Source: Rhizaria sp. SCN 62-66 (lineage: Eukaryota). From it: a DNA stretch of 64,000 nucleotides. The DNA lies in the NCBI GenBank assembly GCA_001724265.1, contig MEDY01000147.1:1-64000 (forward strand). The letters are read 5' to 3'. The notes beneath the pieces are model-generated. The model was not told the origin of the DNA. It saw only the letters and a program-made list of their open reading frames with translations, and ran no database searches. The first letter of the stretch is position 1; the number at the start of each line of letters is the position of its first letter. The position numbers and the translations under genes are program-made. Of the stretch, positions 567 to 64,000 are shown in pieces.

Positions 567-3500
567 TCACAAGTGCAGCTTGGGGAGGATGACTTTGTTC
601 ATCACAAACAGAGGCTCTGCTTCGTAGAGTGTTTGAATTTCAATCTTACGACCAACGAGCAACATCCCCTTAAGTTCTTCAACGAGCTCAAACGCAAACA
701 GGTCTGCCTCTACTTCAGCAGCCATGGTGTCAGAGTCCGTGGCTGTGTTCAAGTCATCATCATCTTCATTGTCCTCGTTGTCAGTGTTATCAGAGCTGTC
801 TTCGTCGTCGGCGTTGTCACTGCCGTTAAGGCTATTGTTATCGTCATCATTATCGTTCATGTTGTGCTTAGTTGTAGCTTTGCTGTTACCCTTCTTCGTG
901 GGCTTGTGCGCAACTTCAACGCGCTCTTCGGCGCGATTAGTGCGAGTGCTTTGAGCAGCACCACGAGGGACATTCTTGGAGGTAGCATTTTTAATAAGCT
1001 TGATTAGCCTCGCGTTTTGACTTTGTTTTCCAAGCATAAGTTTCTCCCCTCTCTGAGCCCGCTTTTGATGCTTGTTGATAAGTCCCAGCGCGAGCGCTTT
1101 GTCCCGTGCTGTTAAAGGCTGCGCCACTGTCCCTGTCCAGAGCCGGGATGACTTGAAGTTAGGCCGCAAAGATCGTGCAACGGTGACACACGACGTGATC
1201 GACTCTAGTAGCCTGGCATTGAGCGCGCACGGTGTCTGTGACTGCGAACTTAAAAGTGTCAGCGACAATGGCTGAGAGCCGGAAGGCAGCGACTGTGATG
1301 CAGTGAGTGGACCAGCAGCATTTGCTCTCGCAGTATGCATTGACTCATTGTTTTTATGAACACCAGCATCCATAGCAATTGCTGTTAAACTTGTTGAGCT
1401 TGTTGTCGAATTTGCTGTTGTTCGCATCGCTTGCTCAGCGAGGGCGATATCATTCGCCCGCACGCCAATCCACCGCATGCGGCCACGCAGTCCCAGAGCC
1501 CACTGACCCTTGAGCTCACACTTACTCACGCTGGCGCTTAAATCACTTGCAGTTGTGTTTGAACTTACGCGAGAAGTGCTCGAAAGAGTTTTGTTGTTGT
1601 CAGAGTGAGAAATTGTACTGTTCGTGCTCTGAATGCGCTTTCTTGCTGATGTTGCTTGACTCAGCATTGTTGCAGACGCGGTTGTGACACTTGCAGCTTG
1701 TTGCATCACAGCGCTTGCAACAGCGGCGGCCCGCGTCCCAGTGCCGGCCCCTGTGAAGTACAACGCCGCGATCGCAGCGCCGTACGGGTTGTAGTCAGTC
1801 AACACGAGCGCAGGGACGCCATTAGACTGCTGCTGCAACTCAGGCAAATGACCATCAGTAGAGCGCCCTGGAACAGCACTGGTATCAATAACCACATCAG
1901 TCATAATGTTGTCTCTTTTGCTAGAGCTTGGATCACTCGCTTCAGAGCCTTTGAGTTGTGTCGCGAGCGCAACTGCAAGCGCTCGTACTGCCAAAGACGG
2001 AAATCCACAACCTGTCAGCAACACACACGACGGGTATGCACTTGCACCAGAGCCACTCGCATTTGAAGAGGAGTTGTTGGTTCCACCGGAGACGTTTTCA
2101 CCGTTATACACGGTCGACGCAAGATTTTGAAGGACTGATTCCTTCTCTAATATCAGCACAAACGACGCCGAGCAGTACGGTGGCCACGGTGGCGGTCCGT
2201 TGTGCTCTCGCCGCTCACGGTCTCGCCCACGGCAATGGTCGCTTTGACCGTGGTCACTGCGCTTGCGGTCGTCGTCGCCCTCACTGTCACTGTTACTCAG
2301 CGTGCGGCTGCGCTTGATATTGTCGCAAGTGGTGTCACTGTCGCTGCCACTGCCACTGTCGCTGTCACTCTCAACCATAGCTGTCGCTGTTGCATTACGT
2401 GTAGCACTTGCACTCGCACGTTCAGCATTGTTTGTCACAAGTTGCCATTGTTGCTACTGCTCATAAGACCATCGTAATCTTAACCATTGCTCCTGCTCCT
2501 GCTGTCCATGCTGCTGTTGCTCTGCACTATGTTGCTTCGTACGTAACAAGTGTTGATAGTGTTGCACTTTTGCGTGATACTGCTCCCATTCCCACGCTTC
2601 CCGCGCTTCTAACGCCGCGGCAACAGCAGGTCCAGGACCGAAAAACGCAGGATTCCGCAAAAAACGCTCTGACACGACAACAGGTGCAGCCGAGCAGTCG
2701 ATGTAACACCTACGACGTGGAGGCTTTGGCGGTGACAATATGGATGATGATGAGCTCTGTTGATGTGGTAACTGTAACTCTCTGAGAGGGTCACGCTCAT
2801 TGTCGTCATCGTCGTCGTCATAGCCATCATTGTCGTCGTCCTCCGCGTCATACGCAATCGTCAGTGGGCCGTAGACCGCGCCGCGCGCGCCCGCAGCGAC
2901 GCCCAGCGCGGCGCGCGGCACGCGCAGCAGCGCGGCCACATCGGCGACGGCGGCATCAGAGAGGGACTGCCGCGCGAAGACGTCCTGGCGGGAGTAAAAC
3001 AGCCCGCGCAGGGTCGTGGTGCCCGCGCCGGTGCTCGCCATGGCGGCGGCGTTTGACATCGCACTTGAAGTAGTGACGTTTGCACTGGGGGTCGAGAGGG
3101 AGCGGGCAAGGGAGCGTGCGCGCGCGCGTGCGGAGAGCGCGGCGGCGAGGCGGGCGTGCAAGTGCGACAACACGGACAGAACGCGCATGTGGCGGGTCGC
3201 GGTGATGCGGGTCAGAGGGCTGGGTCGACAGAAGGACGCCGCAGCTGCGTCAGCGGACAAAGGATCGACTGAAGAGGCTGCATCATCTGACGGCTACAAC
3301 AAGAACAAAGAGAAAGCAAGGATCCAAAACAAGATCAATGAGATATGTGTTAAGGAGTCAGAACATATCAAAGTGGGTGAGTGAATAAAGTAAAACATTC
3401 GTTGTGAAGTGACGTACAAGTGATAGAGTTGGCCGTTTCCCTGCCATTAGCGCAGTCACATATGCGAGGATAACATCTTCCATGAGACGCAGGACTAACG

Positions 3501-4049: not shown

Positions 4050-5782
4050 TCACGCGTGCGCCAGCGCGGCCGGGAGCGGGACGACAAACTTGGCGTTGAC
4101 GAGCCTGACCACGTCCCCGTCGTCCTCGAAGACGACCTCGTACACGTCGTCGCCACGCTTCTTCGCGGACCGCTTGACCACGCAGGGGTAGAAGGACGAG
4201 ATGTTGTCCACGGGGTACAGCGCCAGCACGCGCCGGCCCGCGGGCAGCTCCACGCGCGCACTCGCGGGGAACTCGCGCAGCGACGGCAGCGGGATCAGCC
4301 GGTCCGCAGTCAAAGCAATCTTCTTCTGCCCGGCGCCGCCGCCGCCGGGTTGCGCGTACTCCTGCTCCGCGTCCTGCACCTCGTAGATTTGAGCCCTACA
4401 GGAACAAATACACAGTATACAAAACAAGATAAAAAGACATAGTGAGTGTAAAATATACAATCGGAGTAAATAAATATAAGTTGCCTTGTTCGAATCAACA
4501 AGATGTCGCAATGACGTGTACCTTGGCGGGACACGGGGCCTGAGCGCGCGAATGCGGCCGAGAATGTACGTCCCGGTGTCAGTGTCTGTAAGCGCTGCGA
4601 CCTCGAGTCCCACGGGCAGCACCGCCGCCGCGCTCTGCTGCGCGCTGCCGCTGCCACTCGCACTGGAGTTGCCGCCGCCGCTGTTGCCGCTGCCGTTGCC
4701 AGCGGCGGCGGCGGGGTCCGGCGAAAGCAGCGTGTCCCAGAGCGCGCCGCGGCGCAGCGCGGAGAGAGAGAGCAGGTGTTTGAACGAGGGCAGGTTCGGC
4801 GGCTCGGGCCGCGAGAGTGACCCGTCAGGAAACTGAAAGAGGTACACCACACCATCGAGCACGTTGCTACCGGCGGCAGCAACGGAGGCGGCGGGGTTTC
4901 TCCCCCCGATCGTCACCACCGTCCCAGCGATGCCGATGCTATTGCCACCGTTGCTGTTGCAGTTGCTGTAGTTGTAACTGTTATAGTGCGAGTGCGAGTG
5001 GGAGAGCGCGAGCGCGGCCGGGTCGCCGGCGGCGGCAGCGGGGCTGGGGCCCGCGGCGCTGTCGGTCATCGCTGCGCCGCTGCCCCGGTCAGGGAACGCA
5101 GAGTCAGCGCCCTGGCCGTTGCCGTTGCCGTTGGAGCTGGATGAGGAGGAGGTGGCCGACGGGTTGAAGCCGCCGCCGGCCAGACTGGAAGAGCTGAGGC
5201 TGCCGGGCGGATAGGGGAAGGGGCTGGGGCCGACGGCGGCGGCGGCGGAGAAGGAGGAGGCTGACGGCGAGGGCTGGTACGCACCGCTGCTCTGATGCGA
5301 GTTGTGATTGTGGTTGTGGGGATGCGAGAGAGAGGACGGCAGCGGGAGCCCGCCGGGGGTGCGGCGGGCGATGAGCGGGTTGATGTGATAAAGGGCGTGG
5401 TCGACGGAGCGCATGCTGTCGATGGCGAGCAGAAACGCCTGGAGAAGAGCGAGAGCAAAAACAAAACAAGCAGTGCAGTTTAATGGGCAGTAATGAAAGA
5501 CGGGATGAAGCATAAGTGTGAGAGAGGAACTTCAACAGAAACGAGATGAATCAAGATTCGTAGAGAATAAGACATAGAAGTACGAAGGATGGGCGTTATT
5601 TAAGCACCTACTTCTTGAATCTTCTGCGCCAGCGCAGCGTGCAACGCCGGGTCCGGCGGCAGGCCTTGCTGCTCCTGCGCTGCGCACGTGTCTTGCAAGT
5701 GATACAGCTCAGCATACACGTCCTGCTCTTGCAGACGGGCCTGATGAAGCCGCTTAAGACCCTTGCCAACCTCGGTGGCCAT
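4050..5782 (-). CDS. SGF29: SAGA complex tandem-Tudor subunit SGF29-like, ~477 aa. Exons 5782-5612, 5438-4522, 4395-4050
   Basis: C-terminal YEVQDAE...RVLALYPVDNISSFYPCVV...YEVVFEDD...VNAKFVV matches the SGF29 double Tudor. Two GT-AG AT-rich introns, total exon length divisible by 3. Ends in TGA. Confidence 0.82.
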
Positions 5783-6221: not shown

Positions 6222-7928
6222 ATGAGCGCCCCTGTCTCTGCCGCCGTCTCCCCCGCAACCGTTTCACTTCCGCACCTTCTGTCAGCCTGTCTTTCCGTTG
6301 CCCGCCGCGCTGGCGACATCATCCGTGGTGTCTACGCGCAGGGCAAGCACGTGAGCTCGATGGTGGACAAGCGCGCGACGCCCGACGCGGAGCTGTGGGT
6401 GGACCCGCAGACCGAGGCCGACGTGCGCGCGCAAAACATGATCATCACGTCGCTCAAGGGCGTGTTCCCCGCGCTGCGAATCATCGGCGAGGAGGAAGAC
6501 GACTCACAGTCGGCGTTCCCCGTGGACATGGACACCTTCGTGCCCGACTTGACCTCCGTTCCCGCGTCCATCATCCTCCCTGCGCACCGCAGCACTGCCG
6601 CCAAAGCCGCTGCCGCTGCTTCGGCCGACTCCGCGCTCACCGCCGCCCTGGCGCTGCCCATGGCGCTGACGGAGCTGCCGCTGGAGGGTCTTACAGTGTG
6701 GGTGGACCCGCTCGACGGCACGCGCGAGTTCACGCTCGGCCACGTCGACAACGTCACGACACTCATCGGCATCTCCTACAAGGTACCTTAAACATCCAAT
6801 TTGACAACAAAGATAGCTCTCTGTCGCTGCAATTTTGCGTTGTACTATAATTTCATACTTTCTGTATACCTCGTCTTAGATTGGGATCGATATGCGATTG
6901 TCATGTGCTTCATATCTCAAGTCATAATATTTGTGCACTTTGTTGCAATTGCTGTTGATGTTTGCATTTGCGTAGGGTGCTGCGCTGGGCGGCGTCGTTC
7001 ACGCCCCGTTCCTGAACCAGACGGTTTACGGCGCCGTTGGCATGGGCGTCGGCAGCGAGGGCGGGCTTGCAGTCAGGGACGGCCTCTGGGCCACAGCTCT
7101 CTGCTCACAGTCACCCAGTGACAACAACAACAGCGAGGCTACGCAGTCATCGAAGGGCGACGCCGAGGGCGCCAGTGAGAGCGCGGAAGTGACTCTGGCG
7201 TGCTATAAGACGATTGCTGAGGGCCAGAGAAACGCGCTTCGCTCCATCGGCATCAACCCTGACTGCCTCCTCTCTGACGAAAGCGCAATCAACACGGAGA
7301 GTGCCTCTGACAGCTCTAAGACTGTCGTTGCTCCCGTCGTGCCGTCGGTCCCGTCCAGCTCGCTCACGGTCGTGACCTCGCGCAACCACATGACGCCGAC
7401 GCTGCGCGCCGTGCTCGACAGCCTCCAGATCGGCACCGTGCTTCAGGTACTTAAAACAACAGTATAACTTGTCGTTTTCTTTGATATCTCTGTAATATTG
7501 AAACTCTTTGTTATAAAGTCGTAACATGCGACAATTTTCAAGAACTATTCGTATTTTATATATTTGTTTCACATTGGTCGACTAACATCTCACCGTTCTA
7601 TGTGGCAATTCATACTTTCTGTCGTCGTTTGCGCATATCCCAGGTCGGCGGCGCCGGCTCCAAGGGCCTGCGTCTGCTGACCGGCGCGGCGCACGCCTAC
7701 GTTTTTCCGCAGGGCGGCACGAAGCGCTGGGACACGTGCGCCGTGCACGCGCTCGTCACGGCGCTGGGCGGCACGCTCACCGACGCCTACGGCGGCGCGC
7801 TGCGCTACGACTGCGACCGCGCCGGGGCGGGCAACCAGCGGGGTGTGCTGGCCACGCTCGGCTGCACGCACGGAGACTTGGTGCTCAGCGAGGAGACGCA
7901 GATCTACCGCGGGGAGGGCAAGCTCTAA
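6222..7928 (+). CDS. BPNT1: 3'(2'),5'-bisphosphate nucleotidase (inositol monophosphatase family), ~438 aa. Exons 6222-6782, 6976-7446, 7644-7928
   Basis: Motifs DPQTEAD, IIGEE, WVDPLDGT, GGVVHAPF, VVTSRNH, GGAGSK, KRWDTCA. Two phase-0 GTAC..AG introns. Ends in TAA. Confidence 0.88.
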
Positions 7929-8311: not shown

Positions 8312-11300
8312 TTAGTTGGCGCTCGTCGCATTTGCGTTTGTGTGGTTGTCAGTGACCGTGGGCACGAGTACCCCGTCTTCTTCCTCCTCTTCCCCTTCCT
8401 CAGCAACTGTGAGCAACTCCCCAGTAACGATAGTGGGCGCGACGCCGCTAGGGACTGTCAGCGCAGCGCTGTTGACGACTGTAGGCACAGAGCCGTCCGT
8501 GACGGCGCTCGTTACACCGCTGTTTGAAGCATTGTTATTGTTGCCGTTGTCGCTGATATCGTTACTTTTCGCTGAAGTTAGAGGGGAGACGCAGTCCGTC
8601 AGCATGATGTCATTGATAGCTGCAAGCATATCATCACTGTCGATATCAACATCAATCCCAGCACTCAGAGCGCCCATAGCGCCATTAACAGGATCGGCAC
8701 TTGCGATCGCATTCGAGGTAAGACTTGAGCTCGCAGCACTACTGGTGCCAGCAGCAGCACCAGCACTGCTGTTGTAGCTCGGAGTAGCCGCCGCAACGCC
8801 CACACCGCTCGCTGTGTTGTTCCAGTCGCTCGCACTAGTTCGAGTACTTAAAGCGGCAATCAGCGCGTTCTGGTCCATCTCGAGCGCCGCCGCCGCCGCG
8901 TCCCGCCGCCGCTGCTCGCTCCTGCGGTACTCCTCGACCTCCTCGCGCGCCTCCCGCGCCAGTTGCGTCAGCACCGCGCGCAGACGGCGGTCTTCGAACG
9001 CGCTGTCATCGTCGTCGTCATCGTCGTCGTCGCCGCCGTAGATGACACGGCTCTTGTCGGCGTTGACTGCGCTCTTGCTGTAGGCGCTACCGACGGTGTT
9101 GATGTTCTGGCGAGAGTGGGTGTAGGTGCCACGAACGGCAGCGGCGGCGGCGGCCGCGGCGCCAGTGCAAGTCGAGTCGGACTGGTGACGCGGGGGGTGG
9201 AGATACTTAGACTGGTCTAAGGGTCCCTGTCCGCGGTGGGGACAGCAGCAACAGCAGCGGCAGTGGCAGTGACAGTGCGAGAGACTGTGGCTGTCAGCGC
9301 AGCAAGAACAAGGTTTGGCACTGCTCATATCGCAGTGAGCGTGATCGCGATCGTGACTGTGAGCGCTTTCAGAGTGACTGTGCGCAGGCGCAGGTGCAGA
9401 TGCAGGTGCATGGTGGCCCTGATCACTCGCAGGGTGACTATGAGCAGCAGGGTGACCGTGAGCAGGAGCGGGGCGATGACCGTGGGGCGTGCTGCCGCCA
9501 GATTCACAGTCGTCAGCCTCGATCCCCAGCCTCTGCGCGGCCACGTTGCGACTGTGAGCAGTGGAGCGGGGGTGACCGTGAGCAGCAGAAACCGCGGCAG
9601 TGTTCAAAAAGCGAGCCAAAGTGACTGTGGGTAAAGCCAGCTCGCTTGCACCTACACCGGCGCCGGCGCTGTCCGTGATGTCAGTGAGACCAGTGAGATC
9701 ATTACTGCCAACGCTAGCGCCGCTGCGGGCGCTGAGGCCAGGTGCGAGTGCGTCAGCCGCCTCGCTATATGCGCTGTTGAAGCCGCCCACGCTATGACCG
9801 TGAACGGAGTGACCGCGAGCAGAGTGACCGTGAACGGAGTGACCGTGAGCACTAGGACCGCGATTGTAGCCGCCGGTGCTGTGAGCAGCGGAGATATAAC
9901 TGTGAGCGGAGGGATCGAAGAACTGAGGACGCGGGGTGATGAGGTCGTCAAAGTCCTCCCTGGGACTGCTGAGGTCGGCAGGAGAAGTACTACTGAGATC
10001 ACCCGACACGCTACTGACATCGCCACTGATATGAGCAGGACTGATGGTACACTCGTCTTCTTCCTCTTGACCGTCTTTGTCTTTGTGGTCATTGTTCTTA
10101 CTGTTGCTGTTATCATCATTCGCAGCGTCCTGTTGCTGCTTCTGCTGCTTCTCCGGATCGTGCGCTAACAAGCGTTGCAACAAAACATCCTGCGTCTCGT
10201 TTGCTTCCCCATGCCCCAACTCATACTCAATGTCGCCAATTTCGCCGAAGGGCTTCGGGGGGTACCGCGGCGTCGGCTCAGTCGCCAAGTAGGCGCGCTC
10301 GGCGGCTTGCCTTTGCACAAAGTCCTCGATGCTCATGTACGCGCTGTCGTTGAGAGTGCCATGATAAGCAACAGCGGAGGAGAGCTCAGCGTGAGGCAAG
10401 CTCGTGTTCAGAATACTACTGCTACTGCTACTGCCACTGTTGCTGTGAAGTTGATCGAGTGCGTTAGAGCGCCGCGAGTTGAGCCGTTGCAGCAGCTTTT
10501 GCCTCGCAGACAGAGGCGGCGACGACCTTGACGCTACCTGTGACTCTGACTGCAACTGCGGCAGCGGCTGCGGCAAGGAAAACATTGGCAGCGGCTGCGG
10601 CGGCGGCTGCGGCAGCGGCTGTAAGTGAGGCTCAGCCAAGACCCGCAACGCAGCTGCTGTAGCTGGCGCAAGCTTTTCTAGCACAGCGAAAGTCAAGCCG
10701 CTGGTGGTGCCTGCGTCTCTCGAAGTTAGACCGCCCTGGCGCGGGGAAGCAAATGCGCTGCCACGAGCCGACTTCTGCTCAAGACCCAAGTCACGGTCGC
10801 TGTGGCTATGGCCATTGGCAGCATGGTACTGTTGCTGATACTGTTGTTTGTGCTGTTTTTGGACAGGAACAGGCGGTTTGCGCAGTGACACACCTTCGAC
10901 AGCAACGCCAACGCCGCCGCCATCAGCGTTCTCATGCTCATGCTGACTGCGTCTCGCGTTATTGCCGTCATTGTCGTCGTTTTGACTCTGACCGTGGGTG
11001 ACCGTGGGCACAAACGCGACGCGGTTCTCCCAGCGGGCCCTGCCGCCGACGCTGCCGCCGCCGGCGCCCGCACTGCGGTTATGACTGTGGCTTCGGCTGC
11101 GGCTGCGGCTGAGATCATGCGACTGCAACTGCGGCTGTAGGAGTGAGTGCGTGTTGTTGCTATTCTTGGTTTTTGTGGCGCTGTGAGTGTTGGTCGTGCT
11201 CACATTCTTGTAGGTGGCGCCAAACCCGTCCGCGTAAGTGCCCGCCGCGCCAGTGTAAGGGTTGCTGCCGTGGACGCTGACGCCGGCGTAGACTGGAGGC

Positions 11301-11526
11301 GACCGCGGCCGACTGTTGCTCCAAGCGACGACGACGTTGCCGGTGTGGCTGCGGGTGCGGCCCCGTTGCGGCTGCTGCTGCTGCTGCTTCTGCTGCTGTT
11401 GCTGTTGCTGGCGCTGGCCCATGTAGTCGCGGGCACTCGGGTTGGGAGCAGCGGTAACGGTTGCCGTCGCAGTGTGCCGCCGGGGCAATCCGGGCTGGCG
11501 AGCGCTCGAAGCATTGACAGACAGCA

Positions 11527-11575
<49 letters not shown>

Positions 11576-11887
11576 TGATGACGGTTGCAGCTGTGAGCGC
11601 GATTGTGACTGCGTGTACGCGTTCGACAGAGGCAGGACGGGACCGTGAGTCGCACTAATACCGGGAGCAGCAAAGTTGCCACCGCTACCCACAGCCTTAT
11701 GCGCCTGCGTTGACACTTGGTGCTGCTGCTAGTGGAGCCACCACATCTGCTGCTTCAACTGTTCCGTGGTGGCGGCGCGCTCCGCGGCGGGCTGCACGGT
11801 CGGGGACCGGAACCGAGAGATGAACGAGGCAATCACGCCCGTGGCAGCAGGTTCGGATGGAGCGCGCGAGGGCGAGGGCGTCGCCAT
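8312..11887 (-). CDS. Uncharacterised low-complexity (Ser/Gln/His/Ala-rich) protein, ~1191 aa if the in-frame TAG at 11731-11729 is read through
   Basis: ATG at 11887 in GCCATGG context with GC-rich coding-like codons. The frame continues across one TAG into the 1134-codon ORF 8312..11716. No recognisable domain. Ends in TAA. Confidence 0.7.
11527..11582. repeat. (GAC)n/(TCG)n trinucleotide microsatellite encoding a poly-Ser tract on the minus strand
   Basis: Run of about 15 GAC units visible directly, followed by GAT units. Confidence 0.95.
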
Positions 11888-12488
11888 GGCGGGGTATGCG
11901 CGGGCAGGCGAGCTGGGAAGGAGGAAAGCGAGACTGGCTGGAGGAGGTGAACATCGTTGGAGAAGGAGCAAACCGGGAAGTAAGTTAGATGTTAGTCGTT
12001 GCAAACAATTTTTAAGTATTATAAATAAATGTTTCATAAAACACAGGACATTGGAATTCATAACGATTATCGGAGGAACCATCGTTCTTGGTCTTGTCAA
12101 AGTTGGCGTCGATTCGAGAGAGCTGTTGGAGGCTACCGTCGGCTGTCCGCCCAGTGTCAGACACCGTGACTTTCGGCCCACTTTCGACAAGCACAGCGTT
12201 TCTGCCAGATCGTCAATAGTCCTATCAATACGATGTCACCACTTTAAACTCTCTTATTTATTTGCCCGCTGATTATTCTCTCTTAAGATCGAACGCTGAC
12301 CTCTCTCCTGCCTGTTTTGCGTACCATACTTTTCGTTGTCTTCGCCCGCCTTGCCTCACTTCCCGCTAGTGTTGCTCAGACTACCTGACAACATTATTCT
12401 TCATACACCAAAACACTGCGCGGTTTAAGCTGAATTTTTCTTCCACAAGAACGCGTTTTTATTGCTTCAGTAGGCGTTTGTGGCCCGC

Positions 12489-14061
12489 ATGAGCGCCCCG
12501 ACCCCGATGGGCCCCCATAGGCCCCCGTCCCCCGCCGCCGCGCCCGCCTCCGCCCTCATCTCTGCCTCTTCATCCGCCTCCGTCTCGTCCTCCGCCGCTG
12601 CTCCCGTCGCACCGGCGCCCGTGCCCTCCGCGCGCGTGCGCTCGTTCCCGCGGCTGCCTGCGTCCTCGGTTCCCGCCGCGCTGGCGCAGCGCGACCGCGC
12701 CGTCGTCGCACTCGCGGCCGCTCTGGCCCCGACGCGGCCGCGCGTGGCGGCGCTGGCCCGCGGGTTGGGCGTCCCGGTTCCTCTGTACGCCGACGGCAGC
12801 AGCGACAGCGCTGAGAGCGTTCGGCAGGAGCAGGAGCAACACCAAGGCAACCACAGTGCTGCTGTAAGTGCGAGAGCGAGAGCGAGTGATAATGCAGTTG
12901 CGGCTGCTGCGGCTGCGGCGACCGCCCGCGCCACCGCCGCGACCGCCGCCGTGACCGCCGCCGAGCAGGCGCGGCACTCTCGGTTCCCGTTCCCGTACAA
13001 CGTCGTGCACTTGAACTCGCAGCAGGGCTCGCTGCCCTTGGCAACGCTGGGGGCGCTGGAGAGGGCGTATCCCCCTGTCAAGGCGGCGGAGCCGGTCGAG
13101 ATCGACATTTTCAAGCGCTATAACATCGGCGACTATGATGTGAGTGACGATAACATGCGTAACAGCGACAAAAACAATCGTGATGATGATACTGGAAACG
13201 TTAGCTTGAATAGTTCCGACTCTGAAGACTTTGACGCGTACATCTTTGGCAACAACAACAGCAATAACGCCGACACCAAGCAGAACAACGCTAGCGCTGC
13301 GAGTGCTGCTGACAGTAGTGATGACGAAGACGGCGCCGATGACGACGATTACACGTGCTTAGACAAAGACTGGGATAGGCTATTTTTCCATGTCGTGCAT
13401 TTGGGCACCGATATTGACTATAGCGCTCCCTACAGCGACGTCGCCGCTGAGGACGCGGACCCAGACTCGCATCACTCATCGTCACAGTCCCGCACACAGT
13501 CGGAGTTGCTTCATTCCCACAGTAACGTGCCTATGTCCGACACTCACGACGCACGTTGCCTCTGCCACAGCAACGGCAACGGCAACAACAATTACAATCA
13601 CATTCACAGTAACTCTGCTTACCTGTCGACGACGACCATGCTGACGACAACGACGACCGACTCGGCCACGGGTGCCGTTGTCAGCACACGCAGTGTCGCC
13701 TACCCGACTCCTCTGCAGTCGTTTCTGCCCTCTTTGCCTCTGTCGCTGACACCCTTCACGTCACACCGCCCCGACAAGCAAAACAACAACGACTACGACT
13801 ACGAGAGCAACAATTGCATGAGCTCTCACATCCCGTGCCCTGTGCACGGCCATCGCGCTGCTGACAGCGACAGCGCCGACACTCTGTCTAAGCGCCGCTT
13901 CGTGTCGGTCCTTAGCCTGCCGCAGCCCCCTTACATCAACCACTTGTACGCCTCGGCGCTCGGCCTGGGCCCCGATGCCCACGCCACAGCGATCGCCGCC
14001 CTCAGCGCGGCTAAGCCCGGTGCCGGCGACGGCGACAAGGCTGCCGGCGACAAAGACAACT

Positions 14062-14099
<38 letters not shown>

Positions 14100-14517
14100 T
14101 CCGGAGCCGGCGCGGCGCGGGCGGCGGACGGCGGCGAGGCGTGCGTGCGGTGCCGGCAGACGGTGTTTGTGAACTCTGACCTGGGCGAGCGCGTGTGCGC
14201 GACGTGCGGGTTTGTGTCGGCCGACTACCTGCAGGCCGAGGCCGATCAGGGCGCCGAGTTCGACGAGGACGGCCAAGTCAAGCAGGGCAAGCTGCGCAAG
14301 ATGCAGTTCCTCAATCTGAGCGAGCAGAAGGGCAAGACGGTCACTGCCACTGCACGCGCTGCCGCCGCTGCCGCCGCGGCTGCGGCTGCCAAAGAGAAAG
14401 GCGGCGGCCACGGCGGCGGTAGTGCTTCGATGGCGCACTTGCTCGGCGACGATAACGAAGAGGAGCAGCAGACGCAGGAGAGCGCTTCCGGCGCTGGCAA
14501 CAGGGCGTTTGGCGCGC

Positions 14518-14550
<33 letters not shown>

Positions 14551-17500
14551 ATCTCGGCGGCGGCGGCGACAACAGCGGGGGCGACAGCGACGGCGGCGGC
14601 GACGGTGACGACGATGATGGTGGTAGCGGCGGCGACAGCGACGGCGGCGGCGGTGGCGGCCGCGGCAATCGCGGCGGCGGTAGTCTTGCTGCCGGCCGCG
14701 CATGGCGCAGCGGGCAGAACCACGCCCGCAAGGCCGCCGCAGTCGAGGCCGAGCGCTCTCTGCTCGACCTGTCACTGTCTCAACACTTGGATGTGTACAG
14801 GACGCTCTGGCTGAGGCTGGGGCCGCCGGCGCGCGCGCCTGTGGTCACAGCCGCCGAGGTCGAGGCCGTTACGAAGGAAATTGCACAGGCTGAGTCTGCT
14901 GCTGCGGAAGCTGCGGCCGCCGAGGCCGCTGCTGCTGCTGCCGCTGCTGCAGCCGCTGCGAACGATGATGACGATGATAAGATCCCCGATCTCATTTCTG
15001 TTCACGACGAGCCTATCAATCAGAACAAAGACGCTGGCAGCAAGAGCTCGAGCGCGAGTCAGCTTCGTGGCTTTGTCACCAGCGCAACCGCCGCCGGCTC
15101 TCAGTCTCACGCGGTGGTCGCGAGCGCGGCGATTAATCCTTTCACTCCCGCGGCCGCTGCAGCGCCGTCGGCCGTGCGGTCGGCCCACGAGATCCGCGCC
15201 GCGCTAGAGAGCAAGCGTCGGCTGCTCAAGGCGCTGTCGGCGCGCGCGACGCTGATCGCGCTGGCGCCGCCGCTGCAGCTGCAGGCGACGCGGCTGGCGC
15301 TGCAGTCGTTTCAGCTGCTGCTGCTGCGGCTCGCGGGCGCGGCCGTCGCGGCAGGCGCGGCGCACCCCAGTCTGGTCGTCCGCGTGGGCCGCGTTTGGGC
15401 CAAGTTGCTGCAGTGGTGGCGCCAGACGGGCTGGGGCGCCGATGCGGACAACGCGGCCGTGGTGCTGGTGACGTACAAGCCCACGGTGGCTGAGCTGCGC
15501 AAGCAGGCTCGCTCGCGCCAGCTCGCCAGCGGCCGCGGCCTTGGAGGTCGCGACGGCGGCGTCACTCGCGGTGGCGATGGCGGCCTCGGTTATGACGACG
15601 CCGAAGACGACGACGGCGACTGCGAGCAGGACGACGACGGCGGCGACGGTGTGTGGTTCGACGACATGTCCACTTCGGACGACTCATCCTCCAACGAGTC
15701 GGCCGGCCCCCGCCACGGCTCGTCGTCGTCGTCGCTCTCGTCCGACAGTGAGCAAGACGCTCCAAAAGCCAATTTAGGTCAGACAACTCTCCCTGGCTTC
15801 AGTCGGTACAGTAAGCGTAGTTTAAACAGCCGCCGCCGCGCAAGCACCCGCAGTCGCGGCGATGTTGACAGCGACAGTGGCAGTGACGCCGTCGCCAGTG
15901 ACTGTGAGCGCGACGACGTTGGCCGCGACTTGGGTGAGGACCACGAGCAGCAGACGCGCATCAAGAGCATCTTCAAGTCGCACTTCGGCTCCTTTATCGT
16001 CTCCTCAGCGTACAAGGACACCAAGAAGAGCAACTCTGTCTCTCGCGCCCACTTCCAGTCGCAGCTCAGGTACATTCCCCGTCAAAGCGACGGCCGTTTC
16101 GTCGGAGTGCCCCGCGACAACCCCGCCAAGGACGCGCTCGACGGCAACCGGACATCGCGCCACGTGCGCCGCACTCGCCGCGCCGCCGCGCTGGCCCAGG
16201 CGACGGCGCGCGCGGGCGTCTCGGGCGTCGCGGCCACGGTCTTCCGCTACGTCGAGCAGCCCGCCGACGGCTCCGTGGCGGCCTCCGCGCAGCACCCGGA
16301 GCGCGCGGGCGCGCTCACCGGCGCGGCGCTGGCGAGCCGGCGCAAGAACGTGCCCATCCAGCTCGACCTGGGCATCACCACCGCAGTTGGCACCGGCGCC
16401 GCGGCCGCGCTGGGCGGCCAGACCGAGGAGGAGGCCGCCGCGGCGGTCGCGGCCGCGGCGGCGGAGGAGGCGGCGCGCAGGACCGCGGCCGAGATGCTGC
16501 CCACCAGCGCGAACTTTGTGCGGAAGAATCTGTGTCTCTCCACTGATGCAGGCAGCAGCGCGCGTACATCTGCCAAGGGTAAGGGTAAGGGCAAGAGCGC
16601 TAAGGGCGACGCCGACAGCACGGATACTGAGTCCGGCGCGAGCGCGAATGCGCGGAAGCTCGCCCGCTTGCTAGCGACGCGCGCAGACGACGATGACGGT
16701 CACGACGGGGACAGCGGTAGTGGCGTGAAGAGCCTCATAGTCAGCACCGCAGTGTCAGACAAGGTGGCCGCTTCAATTGCCATTGCGACCGCGATCAGGC
16801 TGTCTGCACAGCCGACTATCATCAATACCTCGAGTTCCTCTCACGCTAGCACCAGCACCAACAGCAGCAACAGCAGCAACGACTTTAGCAGCAGCAGTCG
16901 TAGAACGAGCGTCATCGCTGTGAACACGAATCCTGGCACTGTTCGTCCCATCATCGCTGAAGTCAAGCCGCCTGCCCTCCCCAGCCCCGCAGCGAGCAGG
17001 ATCAGCTTTGCTCCGGACGCCGCTCGCGCCCAGAGCGACAGCAGCAGCCCCAGTGACAGCGACGACGGCGCGCGCGTGAACAGGAACGCTCTTGTCCCGC
17101 GGGCTAGTGCCAAGAGAAAGCCGCGCCGCGTCACGGCCATCCTCACGACTCCGCAGGCCGTCGCGCCCGCGACCTCGTACCCGCTGCTGCCACTGCTGAC
17201 TCCCGCCCGCGTGGCCGCCGCGACGCTGCTGCTGCGCGCGCAGGCCGCGTCGCCGACCGCGGGCGTGCCGCTGGGCGCTCTATCGCAGCTGGCCGCCGTG
17301 CGCCGCATTGCTTCCCGCTCGCTTGCGCGCGCGGCCGCGGTTGCCGGCGCGGAGGCCGCGGCCGCCGCGGGCGTGACCGACGCCGCCGCGGTTGAGGCCG
17401 CTGCCAGGGCTGCGGCCGTGGCCGCCGTGGACGAGTCGCTCAAGCGCAAGCGCGGCCGCGGCGGCTGGGCGGCGCGCGGCGGCGGCGGCGGCGACGGCGG

Positions 17501-20500
17501 CGCGTACTCCGGACTCGATGCCGACACGGAGGCAGAGATGGAAGGGGACCCCGTGATGAAGGCCGCCGAGGAGGCTGCGAAAGCGACGGCGCGCGCGTTT
17601 CTCGCCAAGCAACGGCAGCAGAGTTCGAGTGACAATGACTCTAGCGACAGCGATGCGGCGTCGGAGGCGCGGGCGCGGGCTGAGGCTGAGAACAAGGCTC
17701 GGCTGCGGCGGCAACAGCAGAAGCAGCTGCGCCGCCGCCGCATGAAGCGCGGCTACGCTGAGAGCAGCAGCGGTGATAGCGATACTGACAGCAAGGGCGC
17801 GGCGGGCCGCGGCCGCGGGAAGTCAGCGCTCGAGAGTAGCAGCAGCGAGTCAGGACGCGACTACGACGACTTCGAAGCGAAGCCACTTAGGGGCGCTGCG
17901 AAGTCGGCAGGCAGCACTCGTGCGAGCACAAGTGTCAAGGCTAAGGCTGAGGCGAAGGCGGAGGCTCGACTTAAGAAGGCTGAGGCGAAGGCCAACAGTG
18001 CGATCAGCGAAGTGCGCACGGCCGCTGCTGCCGCCGCCGCTGCCGCTGTCACCTTGTCGGCTGAGACAGCGGCGGCCGGGTCTGTGCCGCCAGTGACGGA
18101 GGCGTTGGCTGGGAGTCGCGAGTTGAGCAAGATTATTGCGGCTATCGCCGCTGCCGCTTCGCGTGCCGCCTCTGTGTCGACGCGCACCAAGATCATCTTC
18201 ACTGCAGACGCGCAGAATAGCTACAACACTCAGGGCGACGACAACGACGACAGCGCCGCCGACGACATCGACGGCACGGTCCTCGATGCGCGCCTCTACC
18301 GCATGCGCCGCCGCCTGCGGATTGATTCGGTAGCCTCCGCGCCCGCGATGGACCCGGCCGAGGCGCTGCACGGCAAGGCGCCGTACCCCGTGCTGGTGAC
18401 GCAGCACCAGCGCCTGCCGGGGTATGTGCTGACCGCGGTGCAGCGCTACCTGGCGCGCACGCTCGTGCCCGCGGCCGCGCTCTACCTGCCGCGACACGCG
18501 CCGACCGTACGCGCGCTGAGCCGGCGGCAGCAGGAGTACGTGCTGCTGCGGAGCTCGGCCGTGGGACAGTTCATGCTCGTCATGAGCGGCGTGATGAAAG
18601 AGCTGCCCGTGCCGGAGTACTTGGAGCGCTACTTGCTTGCTCTCGAGGTGGAGCCGGAGAAGCAGCGCGGCGACCGGGGGATGAAGATGCAGGCCCGTTA
18701 TGAGAAGGAAAGGCTGCGGCGGAAGCAGTGGCGCCAGAAGGAGCGAGAGCGCAGGGCGCTTGCCCGCAGCAACAGCGCGAGCAACAGCACGAGCACGAAC
18801 GCCACTCAAGCTGACACTTCTTGTGACACTGCTTCTGCATATGTTGACTCGACTTCGTCTGTTAGCGCGACTGCAAGCGTTGGCGCTAGCGCTGCTAGCG
18901 TTAATCGTGTTTCGACTGTCGATGACGTGGACGACGGAGTCAGCTCGAGCCAATCTCAGCCTTTTCACCCTGACACGACAGGTGAAAACACAGAGATCAA
19001 TGTCCCTGAGCAAAAGCTTGTCTTTACCTGTCGCTGCCGCTGCGGCTTCTGCCATCCGCCCGGCACCACGATCCCCCCCGCGCAGGCGCTCGCCGTGGCG
19101 GCGGCGCGGCGCACTGCCGTCGCCAACGCCCGCGTCGCTGCGACCGCAAAACACGCCTTGGAGGCGGCGCGGCCCACGAAACTCAAGGCCCGCCGCGTGC
19201 GCACGTGGAAAGACGCGAGCAAGGCGCCTGCGAGCACGCTTAGAAACCCGTACAACGTGAGCACCAACAGCGAAGCGCTGCTGGAGGAGGCGCTCGCCGG
19301 CTTCAGCTCCGACGACGACGACGATAGTGACGAGACAGACGACATCAGCGGTGGCAGGAGCACGCGCAAGAAGCGCACTGCGGGCGCTGGCGTCCGTGTG
19401 AACAGCGGCGCGCTGCGCGTGCTGCAAGACGTGCAGGCCGCGACGGCCGACGAGCGCAAGGGCGTGTACACTGCGCTGCGCGCCGAGACGGCCAAGGTGG
19501 CGCGCGCGGTGCGTGCGTTGGCGGCCGAGTCTGCTGCGCTGGGCAGCAAGAGCAATGATAACGGCGGTAACGCTGACAAGAAGACCATCGACAGCAAAGA
19601 CAACGTTGGCGAGTCACTTGTCGGCTCTGAGGCTGCGACTAATGGACCCATTGTGAAGACCGAGACTCTTATGGGTCACGGTGTCAAGCAGGAGGCTGAG
19701 GCCGCTCACGGTCAGCCGTCTAATGCGGCTGTCTCTCGTCACTCGTTGAACCCGACCCGCGGGCGCTTCAGCCCTGTTGCGAAGAACAAAAAGAGTAAGA
19801 GCAAGAGCAGGGGCAAGAGTCTGGACTCAGACTCAGATTCTGAATCGAGCTCAATATCAGACTCTGAGTTGGATGTCAATACTGACAGTGTCTCTAGTAG
19901 CACCGCGACTGGCACCAAGCGCTCTCGTCTCTTCGGCTCGAACGTTCGTGCCGACAGCGCGCCTCCTGTCACAACCCTTCTCGGCCTTTCAGCGCAACAG
20001 CAGCAGTTTGACGCTGTGACCACGCGCCTTGAGACCGCTGCCCGTGCCGCCAGCTCGCTGTCCATTGCGCACTCCCGCCTACTTCTCAACAAAACCGTGG
20101 CCGAAAGCAGGACCCGCGCCTCACTCGAGATCAGGCGCCAGCGTGCGACCGCGCTCGACGTCGCGACTGCGGAGGCCGCGGCCGCAGCGGAGGCGGAGGC
20201 CACGCTGTGGCGGCGCGCGGCCGAGGAGGCCGCAAAGACTGATTCGCATAACTTGAACAACACTGCATTGACTGTCCTCAACGGCAGTAGCAGTAGTAGC
20301 GACGACGTCGACATTGATGACGAACGCGTTGACGGGATTGTGGACGTAGACGATGTTGACGATGGCGACGACGAGATGATGCACACGAGCCACAGTCTCA
20401 AGAGCAAAAGCGATCTTAAGAGGGCAAGGCGCGGTGCCGCTGCTGATGCAACAGCTGTTGCTGCTGCGGCCGCTGCGGTCGCCGCTGCTGCAAGCGGTGG

Positions 20501-23500
20501 CGGCGTCGACCTTGCGACTGCTCGTGGTCGCCCAGACTCCCCGCAGTCGCAGCACCTGGTGAGCTCGCTGTACTCTCTCCCCGGCTCTCTAGTCTACGAC
20601 GAGGACGACGTCTTTCCTGCTCATAGCCAGATCTCGCTCGCACAGTCGTCACAGTCTCAGCTTTCTCAAGACCAGTTTGACTTCGACAGCGACGGTTACA
20701 CTGGCGCGAGAGCGGCGGAGCGGGCGATGAGCGCGGGCGTGTTTGCGCAGGTTTCGGAAGAGAAAACCACATTCAGCTCTTAGTCGCTTGTCTTTGAGCC
20801 CCAAAACCAGCTGCCGCAGCAGCAACAACAGCAGCAACTTCAATCGACGTACACTAGAGCTCCTGCATCTGGCCACTATCAACCTGGGAGCTCTAACCCT
20901 AGAGGCCCCGTGTCACAGGAGAACGACAACATCCACCGCTCGCGCTCCGGCTCTCGCCCCCGCTCTCGCGGCGCGACGGCGACTGGGTCCGGCGTCAGCA
21001 GCGGCATGAGCGCCGGGTTTGTCGCCGCCACTGGCGCGCGCGTTGCCATCCCGTGGCAGCTGAACCCGCTCATCCCCGTGCTGCCGTCTGCCAACACCGC
21101 GTTCGCACCCTCATTCGTGCCGCACATCACAGCGTTACCGCTTTTTACGACACGCAATGCTAATTCTAGCGCCGTGGGTTCTCAAACGGCATCCAGTACC
21201 AGTGACTCGAGTGTGAGCTCTAGTGCGAGTGCGAGTGCGAGCTCTAGTTCAGTGTCTGCATCTGTTCTCCTGTCGTCGGGTGCTGAGGTTCCCCTCACGC
21301 AGTTACACGCGGGCATCGGTGCTGGCTTTGAGTCTGGCTCACAGTCGTTCCTCTCTGCGCAGGCCGTGCCGACTCTGATGGTGTCGCTGCTTGGCGCCAA
21401 CGCCCGCTTGCAGGCCCCGTTTTACCGCCGCAGCTCGCGCGCAACGTCATTCACGACATTCGCTCGCTCTTATGCTGCAGCTCAAAACGCGTCGGCAACA
21501 TCAACAACCGGCGCAAGTGCTGATGACAATGCTGCTGGCGCTGCAACCGCGACGGCGCTGACTGTGAGCGATGACGCGAATGGAGACATTGGCTACGGCT
21601 TCACCGCCAGCGGCCGCGTGCGCCTGCGCCCCATGGCGAAGCACCGCGAGGCGGCCGAGCTCGCGGCCGCGGGGCTGCGCATAGGGCTCAGCGGGACCGT
21701 GTTCGGCCTCGGCGCTCTGGTCACCACCGTTGCGAGCGACCCGCTGCCGAACAAAAGCACTACCGAAACGACGTTGCTGCGCTTAGTTAGGCCGCCACTT
21801 CCCCCAGCGTCTGCTGTCGTTTTACACGACATGGACAGTGTGCTGGGCCCGGTTTTCATTCGCTACTTTGAGGGCTCCACGTTCTGGCGCAACGCGGCCG
21901 CAACCTACCGCTACATGCACGTGCAGACCAGGGATATGCTGCTGATGCACTACTTCAAGTACATGAAGGCATCATTCGCGCGCTTCCAACGCCGCAGCAG
22001 TAGTGACGCGAACGCGAGCTTGTTGCCGTTGCTGGTCCACGACCTCACTCTCTGGCTCGGGCTCTGCTCCCTGCCGTCGCCGGCGCTGGGCCCCGTGGTG
22101 CCGCCCGCGCTGGCGTTCGCGGCGCACACCGAACACCAGCAGTGGTACTCGATGTGCGAGACGGACCGCGCGAGCATGATCGATCATATGTCGCACTCTG
22201 TCTCGCAGCAGTTGAACACTGGCAGCGCGAACGCTGACTCTCATGCTGTGCTGCCTAAGGGACTTATCGCGCTTGTTGAGAGTGGTCCTGCGATCCCCAC
22301 TTCGCTTGCATCGGTGCAAATCCTATCTGAACAGCTCAAGAACACACTTTTCCGGCTCGTTTTCCCGCCGCAGTCCATGTTGTATCATCTTCCCCAGCCG
22401 ACCATTGTGACCGCCGTCACGTCTGCGACGCAGCGTGCTCGGCGCATAATCACCAAGGCCTCTGCGGCGTCTCCTGCCACTCCCGCCGCAACTTCTGCTG
22501 CTTCCGCAGCAGCGTGTGCCGTGTCGACCCGGCTCATCGTCTCGCTCCGCGCACGACCCCCCCTCGACTACAGGCAAACGCCGCGCTTCAGCAATGGCTT
22601 TGCTGGGCCCAGTGATAAAGAAGACGCCGCTGACGATGACGAAGCCGACGTTTCTGTCAACATTGCAAAGCCTGTGTTTTTGTCGTACCCGTACCATGTC
22701 TACGCGAAGCGCCGCCGCAGTGCAGTCAGCGCCGCGATGGCTGCGCTCATCGCGCGGGCGCCGCGCATCGCGGCCGGGCTGAGCGCCCGCGCCACTCTGG
22801 GCACCAGCACTCGCGCTGGCGGTGACTCGGCGATTGTCGATGGCGCGGCAAACACGTACACCGACGCCGACGGTGCGTACACCGGAAGTGCACTGGACAC
22901 TTACGAAGCTGCTCTGACCGCAGCGGCGCGCGCCATCACGGCGACGCAGACTGCAGCTAAGAGCGGTCGCGCTAAGGGTCAGCGGACTGGCGTCACAGGC
23001 AGCCAGAGCAATAGCACTGGCGATACTGTCACTGCTGCTCACGATGACTACGACCACAGTCGAAACGCTCGCGCTCACGGAGGCGGCGCCAGCGCGTTCA
23101 GTGTCTTGTTTGGCCACTTAGACACGCGCGCCCGCCACGTCAAGTATCACACCCTCTTGGACGAAGAGGAGGCCCTGGCGGGGCTGGCTCCGTGCCGCTG
23201 TGTGTGCATGTACGCCACGCTGCCCGCGATCACGCGGCCACCGTCAGCGTCGCTGGCGCCGAAGCCTCTGCAGGCGGCTGCAAGCAGTGGCGGCAGTGAC
23301 GCTACGACGAAGCCCAACGAGACTATGAGCGATAATGACTCTTCTTTGGCTCAGAATGCGATGAATGGTTCGAGTTCCAGTGCAAGTGCTACTGCTCCAG
23401 TAGACGACAATGTTGCGGTTATGAAGCAGCAGCCTCGTGTCACATTTGACATCCCAGACGGCAACGCTTCCGGCTCTAGCTCTGCTGCTGCCGCTGACTT

Positions 23501-49139: not shown

Positions 49140-49180
49140 TTACCGGCTGACCTGCGCAAACTGTCCCTGCTGCTGCTGCC

Positions 49181-63794: not shown

Positions 63795-64000
63795 GTACGT
63801 CAAGTCACCAACAAGAGCAACTTTTAACAAACCAATGCAGGTCGTGTTTGTGTTGTTAGCAACAGGTTTACCTCCACAAATTCGTGGTGTGTCACAATTT
63901 CCGGCTGCATTCTTATAGATAACATGCAAATAACTTTAGTTCTTCTTCATATTTAAAATTTTTTTCTTTCTGTCGTGTCATTGCGCCTGTCGCAGAGAAA

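Follow-up and report, generated by a model that had tools for sequence, protein, structure and literature searches.

The analysed window, a 64,000-nt stretch of DNA from a metagenome assembly, belongs to an uncultured, GC-rich, intron-poor flagellated eukaryote found in bioreactor and wastewater metagenomes. Three otherwise intact genes within it, SPO11, a low-complexity orphan gene and a giant orphan ORF, carry one in-frame TAG apiece, a frequency of 3 in approximately 17,000 modelled codons. The positions and neighbouring codons given for these TAGs in the initial annotation were all confirmed in the sequence. The three TAGs are real DNA, lie in frame and outside intron-like sequence, and their flanks are kept open and under purifying selection. 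As had been pointed out, all sit in poorly conserved low-complexity segments, and none occupies a conserved, alignable position. The 13 modelled genes of the window showed neither frameshifts nor breaks by TAA or TGA, and neither a tRNA gene nor an eRF1 gene is present within its 64,000 nt.

The main exon of SPO11 (567..3293, reverse strand; stop TGA at 567..569) contains its TAG at 2454..2456, where it reads GAG CAG TAG CAA CAA TGG CAA and forms codon 315 of a 943-aa frame. Under the standard code this frame would be divided into 244 and 603 aa. The 943-aa frame holds two TAGs, the first of which closes an intron (~3294-3420) at its 3' end and is not a codon. A Pfam search placed TP6A_N, with the catalytic tyrosine, at aa 127-167, upstream of the in-frame TAG, and Toprim at aa 502-605, downstream of it. 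In P0004, the sole relative, both domains lie in one continuous frame of 752 aa, and the TAG falls inside a 26-residue stretch that P0004 lacks. The 244-aa frame ending at this TAG is present on five contigs.

The orphan gene (8312..12082, reverse strand), for which coding scores were part of the evidence, ends in TAA at 8312..8314 and would encode 1256 aa if its TAG at 11729..11731 (CAC TAG CAG CAG CAC CAA) were read through. A Pfam search of the gene returned no real family. The standard code would give 1036 aa plus an open stretch upstream of the TAG, where 168 codons are open, to 12235, across an AT-rich island. Candidate starts lie at 12082 and 11887, and a further ATG is found at 11422, downstream of the TAG; because translation may start there, the orphan TAG is the weakest of the three.

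The giant ORF (12489..36758, forward strand; stop TAA(G) at 36756..36758) spans 8089 codons and has polyA-RNA contigs mapping on it; profile and homologue searches found neither a Pfam family nor a homologue. Its single TAG (20781..20783; AGC TCT TAG TCG) is codon 2765, with 2764 and 5324 open codons on its two sides, and the frame would yield 2764 and 5250 aa under the standard code and 8089 if read through. Stops occur roughly three times per 100 codons in the remaining five frames of the region, and chance therefore does not account for 8089 codons with one stop. Purifying selection acts on the gene (pN/pS = 0.30), and the sole indel seen in it removes 2 + 4 = 6 letters, which keeps the frame.

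Comparison of near-identical haplotypes (~0.3-0.6% apart) brought the known amber sites to four, two of which differ between haplotypes. The haplotype of the window is identical in assembly L001 and in X3, a run from another study (0 differences in the pieces listed), and is represented by runs dated 2015, 2016 and 2017 in two studies. X3 has T at 20781, as in the window (C: 0 of depth 5), and only a single allele was seen there, which speaks against shelter of the TAG in a heterozygous state. In the sibling strain X4 position 20781 is C, giving CAG, at a depth of 6.89 of 6.89 on one contig and more than 255 letters from the contig end. A third haplotype, that of a polyA-RNA contig of X5, has an in-frame TAG (GGT TAG ACA) at 15780..15782 (forward strand), where the window has CAG and X4 and X3 keep C. 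This C>T change was seen at a depth of 3.7 of 3.7, 69 letters from the end of the single contig that carries it, and may be an error; X4 DNA from the same study has C. Across 1800-2892, which includes the SPO11 TAG, X4 has at most one difference, by subtraction a change other than the A>G needed to turn the TAG into CAG. A codon that is TAG in one strain can be CAG in another. The 28 differences listed for the giant gene comprise 14 synonymous, 12 non-synonymous and 2 CAG/TAG changes; the probability of 2 CAG/TAG among 12 C/T differences is 0.043 if an amber is synonymous, 0.017 with all changes equally visible, and 0.0046 if an amber is as harmful as the average non-synonymous change. Polymorphism at half of the known sites is also expected of short-lived deleterious alleles.

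An independent recount of the 13 modelled gene ends agreed with the earlier tally of 10 TAA, 3 TGA and no TAG, and G follows TAA at 8 of the 10 TAA ends. Besides the ends given above, TAA(G) terminates an inositol-monophosphatase-like gene (7926..7928, forward), UTP15 (37106..37108, reverse; also covered by Pfam), eIF2-alpha (40066..40068, reverse), a CDK with PSTAIRE (49140..49142, reverse), a Cgr1-like gene (52599..52601, forward), an unnamed 624-aa gene (53384..53386, reverse) and an IFT172-like IFT gene (62614..62616, forward). CDC45 ends in TAA (44297..44299, reverse), and TGA terminates SGF29 (4050..4052, reverse; also covered by Pfam) and an unnamed 717-aa gene (43951..43953, forward). 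An ORF at 63329-63859 was considered as a TAG-terminated gene and rejected; it runs into an intron that starts GTACGT near 63793.

Gene ends lack TAG even though G-ending codons exceed A-ending codons four- to sevenfold (CAG 327 to CAA 82, AAG 380 to AAA 52, GAG 416 to GAA 63). The initial annotation had attributed the rarity of in-frame TAG to strong CAG bias. In the same codon set, however, TAG:CAG is ~2:327 (~0.006) whereas the analogous T/C pair TTG:CTG is 99:443, or 0.22. TAG is thus roughly 30-fold rarer than a neutral Gln codon should be, which indicates that it is selected against or very young. The possible nonsense transitions in the giant gene number 251 to TAG, 49 to TGA and 48 to TAA, so that ~70% give TAG and three ambers out of three would arise by plain mutation with a chance of ~0.3-0.4. 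The codon ratio and the mutation spectrum therefore remove two of the arguments first made for reassignment: CAG bias does not explain the rarity, and the lack of internal TAA and TGA breaks, although correctly observed, does not discriminate.

Ciliate macronuclear genomes are AT-rich and gene-sized or tiny-introned, unlike the window, which is part of a multi-gene contig of up to 203 kb and has 61% G+C and 120-200-nt introns. Reassignment of UAG alone is described in ciliates, to Gln in two phyllopharyngean lineages and Protocruzia tuzeti and to Leu in others; UAG is decoupled from UAA there as it is here, but is frequent in those ciliates and rare in the window (PMC11687900). In Iotanema spirale UAG encodes Gln, gene ends comprise 104 UAA, 15 UGA and 0 UAG, 126 genes contain 204 in-frame UAGs, many at conserved Gln, and eRF1 has a T32G change (Panek et al. 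2017; PMC5304391). The window resembles Iotanema, as described there, in its in-frame UAG, absence of UAG ends, dominance of UAA (10, 3 and 0) and presumptive Gln, and differs in that 3 TAGs occur in 13 genes, none at a conserved position (PMC5304391). Nothing in the introns of the window ties them to fornicates. Euthynema mutabile, a relative of Iotanema with the standard code, has UAG at 7 of 170 gene ends, and the authors of that study regarded near-abandonment of UAG as a possible first step to reassignment (PMC9161772). UAG is likewise almost unused as a terminator here, but in-frame TAGs are present, unlike in Euthynema, for which the cited account reports none found (PMC9161772). At the Euthynema rate (4%), 0 of 13 UAG ends has a chance of ~0.6 by our own arithmetic; the absence of TAG ends put forward in the initial annotation is correct as a count, yet it is weak support given that standard-code genome (PMC9161772). 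One codon could also be both sense and stop, as in the ambiguous codes of Condylostoma, Parduczia and Blastocrithidia; those involve UAR and/or UGA, high in-frame frequency and position-dependent termination, unlike the window, where UAG alone is concerned, at very low frequency and with 0 terminal in 13 genes (PMC5304391).

Sequencing or assembly error is a very improbable origin for the TAGs: depth in the compared runs is low (about 5-8) and the window itself derives from a metagenome assembly, but the same letters are found in L001, in X3 and, for the 244-aa SPO11 frame, on five contigs. Recurrence in independent assemblies means that the TAGs are not assembly errors. It is also improbable, if less so, that the ribosome never meets the TAGs as codons, these being removed within small in-frame introns or, in the orphan gene, lying upstream of the true start at ATG 11422. 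Introns do exist in the window; 7 of 10 checked end in TAG, and the CDK gene has an in-frame one of 135 nt whose single in-frame stop, a TAA, was for that reason rejected as a gene break. SPO11 offers the best in-frame GT..AG candidate, from GTACGA 86 nt upstream of the TAG to CAG sites 69 or 75 nt downstream, and excision of these 156 or 162 nt would, by our own count, leave a linker of about P0004 length. This candidate is purine-rich, without a pyrimidine tract (T 0.17, pyrimidines 0.37), whereas the 10 checked introns have T 0.36-0.45 and pyrimidines 0.57-0.69. At the giant-gene and orphan TAGs every candidate matches GTACGT at 4 of 6 letters or fewer and lacks AT-richness, and the giant ORF is free of AT-rich islands from 13232 to 27838, a span covering 7 kb on either side of its TAG. 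The CAG allele at 20781 further indicates that the site behaves like a codon position. Splicing had been named earlier as one thing that could overturn reassignment; no splice joint falls at a TAG site among the joints listed.

A serious possibility, to which we would give somewhat less than an even chance, is that the code is standard and each TAG is a nonsense allele of the usual kind, arisen by CAG>TAG and tolerated in a successful clonal lineage because the affected genes or segments are dispensable in clonal growth, SPO11 being meiotic and the other two long low-complexity orphans. In the Q-rich context, readthrough of a few per cent by near-cognate tRNA-Gln(CUG) may also occur with the code unchanged. 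In standard-code yeast, readthrough in the context CAG-TAG-CAA is 1.6-4.7% with Gln; snf5-Q267X yields full-length protein at 4.7%, carrying Gln at the stop position, and grows much like the wild type, and in snf5-Q225X and snf5-Q267X Gln comes from near-cognate tRNA-Gln at 2-7% readthrough, the phenotype being buffered (PMC13192750). As in those alleles, a Q-to-stop change lies here in a Q-rich low-complexity segment, and the SPO11 context is identical to that of snf5-Q267X; the snf5 alleles are, however, laboratory alleles, and just 1 of the 4 sites here is Q-flanked on both sides (PMC13192750). The amber-favouring transition spectrum, the rarity of in-frame TAG, its restriction to unconserved segments, the polymorphism of 2 of 4 sites, as for young deleterious alleles, the scarce UAG ends of Euthynema (PMC9161772) and the possible location of the orphan TAG in a 5' leader all favour a standard code. 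It would nevertheless require a heavy load, with 3 of 13 genes broken in one haplotype while IFT, UTP15, CDC45, CDK and eIF2-alpha are intact, no break of another kind is seen and no gene ends in TAG. It would also place two independent ambers, in two haplotypes, in a constrained gene (P 0.0046, as above); neither is Q-flanked on both sides, and context readthrough should therefore be low there. The persistence of the haplotype over three years and two studies, and the want of a second allele in X3 to shelter it, likewise speak against tolerated nonsense alleles.

A leaky or nascent state, the second option of the initial annotation, fits best: UAG would terminate poorly or no longer be a stop at all, and would be decoded as Gln at least in part, a reading that we hold to be about evenly balanced between right and wrong. 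We infer that the TAGs are translated. UAG would no longer be an efficient stop in this organism, and ribosomes would put glutamine at UAG at least some of the time, presumably because a tRNA-Gln carries the anticodon CUA, because eRF1 recognizes UAG less well, or for both reasons, while UAA (mostly UAA-G) and UGA would terminate genes. The in-frame TAGs would derive from CAG via C>T, and glutamine would be the likeliest meaning of TAG, judging from CAG at 20781 in X4 and TAG at the window CAG 15780 in X5. A full, settled UAG = Gln code, as first proposed, is unlikely; the state would be nascent or ambiguous, the TAGs being rare, young and confined to poorly conserved low-complexity segments.

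The points counted for translation of UAG were the SPO11 domains flanking the TAG, the length of the giant frame, the non-intron-like surroundings, haplotype recurrence, the CAG/TAG differences, the RNA amber, the frame-keeping indel, the lack of TAG ends and the match of the end pattern to Iotanema; those counted against it were TAG rarity, the lack of a conserved site, amber-biased mutation, the polymorphism of half the known sites, the small number of gene ends, the absence of tRNA and eRF1 genes from the window, the single-contig RNA amber and the yeast-like SPO11 context. With tolerated alleles under a standard code as the main rival, a possibility somewhat short of even, the window would, if the reading is true, have caught UAG reassignment at its start in a sludge protist.

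Three genes in the window are each interrupted by a single in-frame TAG, and the initial annotation had taken these to mean that UAG is read as a sense codon, likely Gln, while UAA and UGA remain stops. All three TAGs were seen directly in the sequence, at the positions and between the neighbors claimed: in SPO11 at 2454-2456 (minus strand), in an orphan gene at 11729-11731 (minus strand), and in a giant orphan open reading frame at 20781-20783 (plus strand). With the TAG read through, the frames encode 943 aa (SPO11 exon), 1256 aa (orphan gene) and 8089 aa (giant gene). The reading frame was open on both sides of the TAG in SPO11 and the giant gene, and probably so in the orphan gene.

SPO11 (567-3398, minus strand) carries a TP6A_N segment with the catalytic tyrosine at aa 127-167 and a Toprim domain at aa 502-605, and the TAG lies between the two at aa 315. 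Approximately 280 residues separate the catalytic tyrosine from the Toprim glutamate. P0004, the only SPO11 relative found, is 752 aa long, is 47% identical in the best segment, and holds both domain parts in one frame. SPO11 is far longer than this protein (943 versus 752 aa in the frames compared), and the extra length comes from a number of low-complexity insertions in which Asp, Asn, Ser and Gln abound.

The giant gene (12489-36758, plus strand) encodes an Ala- and Ser-rich product that matched no Pfam family. No homologue was retrieved by an exhaustive HMMER search of 1.84 billion representatives with a 1199-aa query, nor by a word-index search with the 600 aa around the TAG, in which targets were restricted to lengths of 330-1050. 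AT-rich islands are absent from 13232-27838, which leaves no room for an intergenic spacer at the TAG, and the five other frames of the region contain approximately 3 stops per 100 codons; the continuity of the giant frame across the TAG is therefore not due to chance. A CxxC...CxxC zinc-ribbon-like motif lies near aa 560, and the frame is covered in part by polyA-RNA contigs.

The orphan gene (8312-12082, minus strand), which is of low complexity, is the weakest of the three cases. An alternative start, ATG 11422, lies downstream of the TAG and would give a 1036-aa protein. A start upstream of the TAG is favored because no stop interrupts the frame for 168 codons on that side, across an AT-rich island. 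At 11840-12229, a contig from the polyA-RNA run X5 spans the AT-rich spacer between the divergent orphan and giant genes unbroken, and may represent a long 5' leader or DNA carryover in the RNA library. None of the TAGs falls in an alignable column, and the giant gene had no homologue to align; the evidence for Gln at these positions comes from two CAG/TAG differences between haplotypes. Windows of codon score and of GC3 at the TAGs proved too noisy to be informative.

The count of stop codons at gene ends (10 TAA, 3 TGA and 0 TAG, n = 13) was reproduced with independently determined gene ends, and the observation that no TAA or TGA occurs in frame within the genes was confirmed, as the sole in-frame TAA sits inside an intron of the CDK gene. 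Two seeming exceptions to the pattern of gene-end and in-frame stops proved on inspection to be introns. By itself, the absence of TAG from 13 ends carries little weight, since Euthynema mutabile is described as having a standard code with UAG at 7 of 170 gene ends (PMC9161772). The chance of observing no TAG among 13 ends is 0.05 if UAG makes up 20% of stops and about 0.6 if it makes up 4%. TAA was preferred to TAG 10:0 at gene ends, though G-ending sense codons exceed A-ending ones 4-7 fold, and the base after the stop is G (TAAG) in 8 of the 10 TAA cases. Both preferences speak for pressure on termination.

The rarity of TAG had been attributed to a strong CAG bias, and codon usage refuted this explanation. 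The ratio of TAG to CAG was approximately 2:327, compared to 99:443 for the parallel leucine pair TTG and CTG in the same 12,282 codons, such that a neutral Gln codon would be approximately thirty times more common. UAG was thus not used at a frequency comparable to that of the other sense codons of its box, and the in-frame TAGs must be either very young or selected against. The restriction of the breaks to amber codons had also been read as a sign of code change, and was found not to be diagnostic, as mutation alone favors TAG with the present codon usage. Nonsense by transition in the giant gene could produce 251 TAG, 49 TGA and 48 TAA codons, and when all single-letter paths to nonsense were summed by hand from the codon counts, about two thirds led to TAG. 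The chance that three of three breaks would be amber under plain mutation is 0.3-0.4.

The window comprises 64 kb with 61% G+C, from a contig of up to 203 kb; its genes occupy both strands and are separated by short AT-rich spacers. Recognizable genes include SPO11, SGF29, an inositol-monophosphatase-like gene, UTP15, eIF2-alpha, CDC45, a PSTAIRE CDK, a Cgr1-like gene, an IFT172-like gene and an EDR2_C-domain gene. The IFT gene points to a flagellated host; a protein-atlas query with the IFT N-terminus returned generic IFT families only, with unusable taxonomy. Metagenomes from bioreactors, wastewater and activated sludge contain the host eukaryote, in runs dated 2015-2025. The 64-kb window contained no tRNA genes, no eRF1 gene and no match to Rfam families, rRNA genes included. 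When metagenomes were scanned with the SPO11 alignment, the sole hit was a contig of 3144 nt that matches the window exactly, and the contig of P0004 was not recovered. Further sequence from the host or from related organisms was sought in prokaryote genomes, with no hit, and in viral contigs, where there were only unrelated WD40 genes or no hit.

Introns are few, approximately 120-200 nt long and T-rich; the 5' end is GTAC(G)T, mostly GTACGT, and TAG forms the 3' end in 7 of 10 checked. The checked set of ten included introns on the plus strand at 6783-6975, 7447-7643, 59495-59670 and about 61335-61479, and on the minus strand at about 3294-3420, 4378-4521, 40661-40789, 45341-45462 and 45852-46003. 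The intron of the PSTAIRE-type CDK gene (49637-49771, minus strand) is 135 nt long, a multiple of three, and its one in-frame TAA would pass for an in-frame ochre codon were it not for the kinase alignment. CTAAC-like motifs lie 50-65 nt upstream of the 3' end in several introns. The GTAC(G)T start is unusual, and intron features might help to place the lineage.

Alternatively, the TAGs might all be removed by splicing or lie in 5' leaders. Every in-frame GT..AG pair enclosing each TAG was listed, and only in SPO11 did a candidate begin close to the consensus (GTACGA; length 156 or 162 nt). This candidate contained 0.17 T and 0.37 pyrimidines, compared to 0.36-0.45 T and 0.57-0.69 pyrimidines in the ten checked introns. 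Splicing of the TAGs is unlikely, and we consider this explanation improbable as an account of all three; the listed contigs of the polyA-RNA runs X5 and X6 cover none of the three sites. Sequencing or assembly error is hardly credible as the source of the TAGs. A contig from another assembly (L001) was identical to the window over 700-3843, SPO11 TAG included, and the 244-aa frame that ends at this TAG occurred as an identical sequence on 5 contigs. In X3, a run from another study, all listed pieces showed 0 differences from the window and T was kept at 20781.

Haplotype differences were found in X4, a DNA run of a sibling strain from another study (2025), with 39 differences from the window in the stretch compared. 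At 20781, X4 has C, and thus CAG opposite the TAG of the window. A single difference was present over the SPO11 piece 1800-2892, and this is not a change of TAG to CAG, because the eight A>G differences of X4 all lie elsewhere; the SPO11 TAG is most likely common to both strains. Eight differences in 16 bases of the SGF29 Tudor region (4248-4263, minus strand), 36-51 letters from a contig end, may be an artefact of the contig end or a short stretch that was replaced. X5, a polyA metatranscriptome from the same study as X4, shares X4-like differences and has private ones. One of the latter, at 15780, changes an in-frame CAG of the window to TAG (15780-15782), where X4 and X3 keep C; it was seen at a depth of 3.7 on one contig, 69 letters from the contig end. 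Ambers at two sites of the giant gene in two haplotypes therefore indicated TAG/CAG interchange.

Selection was estimated from the giant gene only, with the SGF29 cluster left out. The 28 differences listed in this gene comprised 14 synonymous, 12 non-synonymous and 2 CAG/TAG changes, with 11 more differences outside this count. The pN/pS of 0.30 (26 listed differences) indicated purifying selection; downstream of the TAG there were 3 non-synonymous and 2 synonymous differences, too few for a separate estimate of constraint. The probability of at least 2 CAG/TAG changes among 12 C/T differences was 0.043 if amber is synonymous with CAG, 0.017 if all changes are equally visible, and 0.0046 if amber is as harmful as the average non-synonymous change. 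With the low-depth RNA amber left out (one amber), the corresponding values were 0.27, 0.17 and 0.09. The sole indel seen in the giant gene was a loss of six letters that preserved the frame. It was observed in X5 at 17780-17786 (plus strand) as the absence of 2 + 4 letters, at a depth of 2.4.

A leaky or nascent state of UAG = Gln is the reading that fits all of these results, and we give it an even chance, of which complete reassignment would make up perhaps a minor share. If this reading holds, UAG would terminate poorly and Gln would be inserted, genes would have shifted to TAA-G and TGA as ends, and new TAGs would arise from CAG and rarely persist. Translated UAG is consistent with the domains and long open frames beyond the TAGs, with two independent CAG/TAG interchanges within a constrained gene, and with the absence of other lesions. 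It is also consistent with a clone that has lasted over years and studies, with the lack of a second allele in X3, and with the lack of any gene end at TAG. The principal rival, a standard code in which amber alleles are tolerated in dispensable or low-complexity segments, aided by readthrough in Q-rich contexts, is credible, though we place it short of an even chance. It explains the SPO11 TAG well, as CAG-TAG-CAA is exactly the context in which a standard-code yeast is described as producing 4.7% full-length protein, with Gln inserted and normal growth (PMC13192750). Gln codons flank the stop on both sides in SPO11 (CAG TAG CAA) and on one side in the orphan gene (CAC TAG CAG), but on neither side of the giant-gene ambers (TCT TAG TCG and GGT TAG ACA), which are therefore poorly explained by this rival. 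In the tobamovirus type of programmed leaky UAG, the stop is followed by CAR-YYA. This motif was absent after the TAG at all three sites (CAA CAA, CAG CAG and TCG CTT), where no second codon was YYA. Against nonsense alleles under the standard code stand also the lack of other disabling lesions (frameshift, TAA or TGA) across 13 gene models and the pN/pS of 0.30 in the interrupted giant gene, where relaxed constraint would be expected; the lack of TAG as a terminator at the 13 gene ends adds little by itself.

Whether stop codons are abandoned by codon capture or by way of an ambiguous intermediate is a long-standing question. The sources consulted describe only a handful of lineages with nuclear codes that split UAG from UAA, and UAG = Gln with UAA and UGA as stops is described there for Iotanema, Protocruzia and some phyllopharyngean ciliates (PMC5304391; PMC11687900). 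An Amoeboaphelidium-type code was rejected, as it is described as altering both UAA and UAG (PMC5304391; PMC11687900) and TAA ends 10 genes here. Iotanema is reported to have 204 in-frame UAG codons in 126 genes (PMC5304391), in contrast to the rare TAG of the window. A settled code of the Iotanema type is contradicted by this rarity and by the polymorphism of half of the known amber sites. Among the papers listed by literature searches, none concerned a UAG change in a eukaryote from wastewater or activated sludge.

If the organism is a standard-code clone with three tolerated ambers, the case serves as a caution: ordinary mutation produces amber-only breaks in a CAG-rich, G-ending codon usage, and such breaks are therefore not evidence of code change by themselves. 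The known codes that split UAG from UAA were all discovered after the change was complete, and a low-frequency, polymorphic stage of a UAG = Gln code would be new. If UAG is Gln here while TAG is rare and polymorphic, the organism would be a living intermediate. It is possible, if doubtful, that a stop-to-sense change of UAG has been caught in progress, at an ambiguous-intermediate stage in a natural population of a wastewater protist. UAG would then be gone from gene ends and termination reinforced as UAA-G, with in-frame TAGs just beginning to arise from CAG and visible as differences between co-occurring strains. If this is true, the order in which UAG stop loss, a suppressor tRNA, eRF1 change and the gain of sense UAG occurred would be readable from strain-resolved metagenomes and metatranscriptomes.
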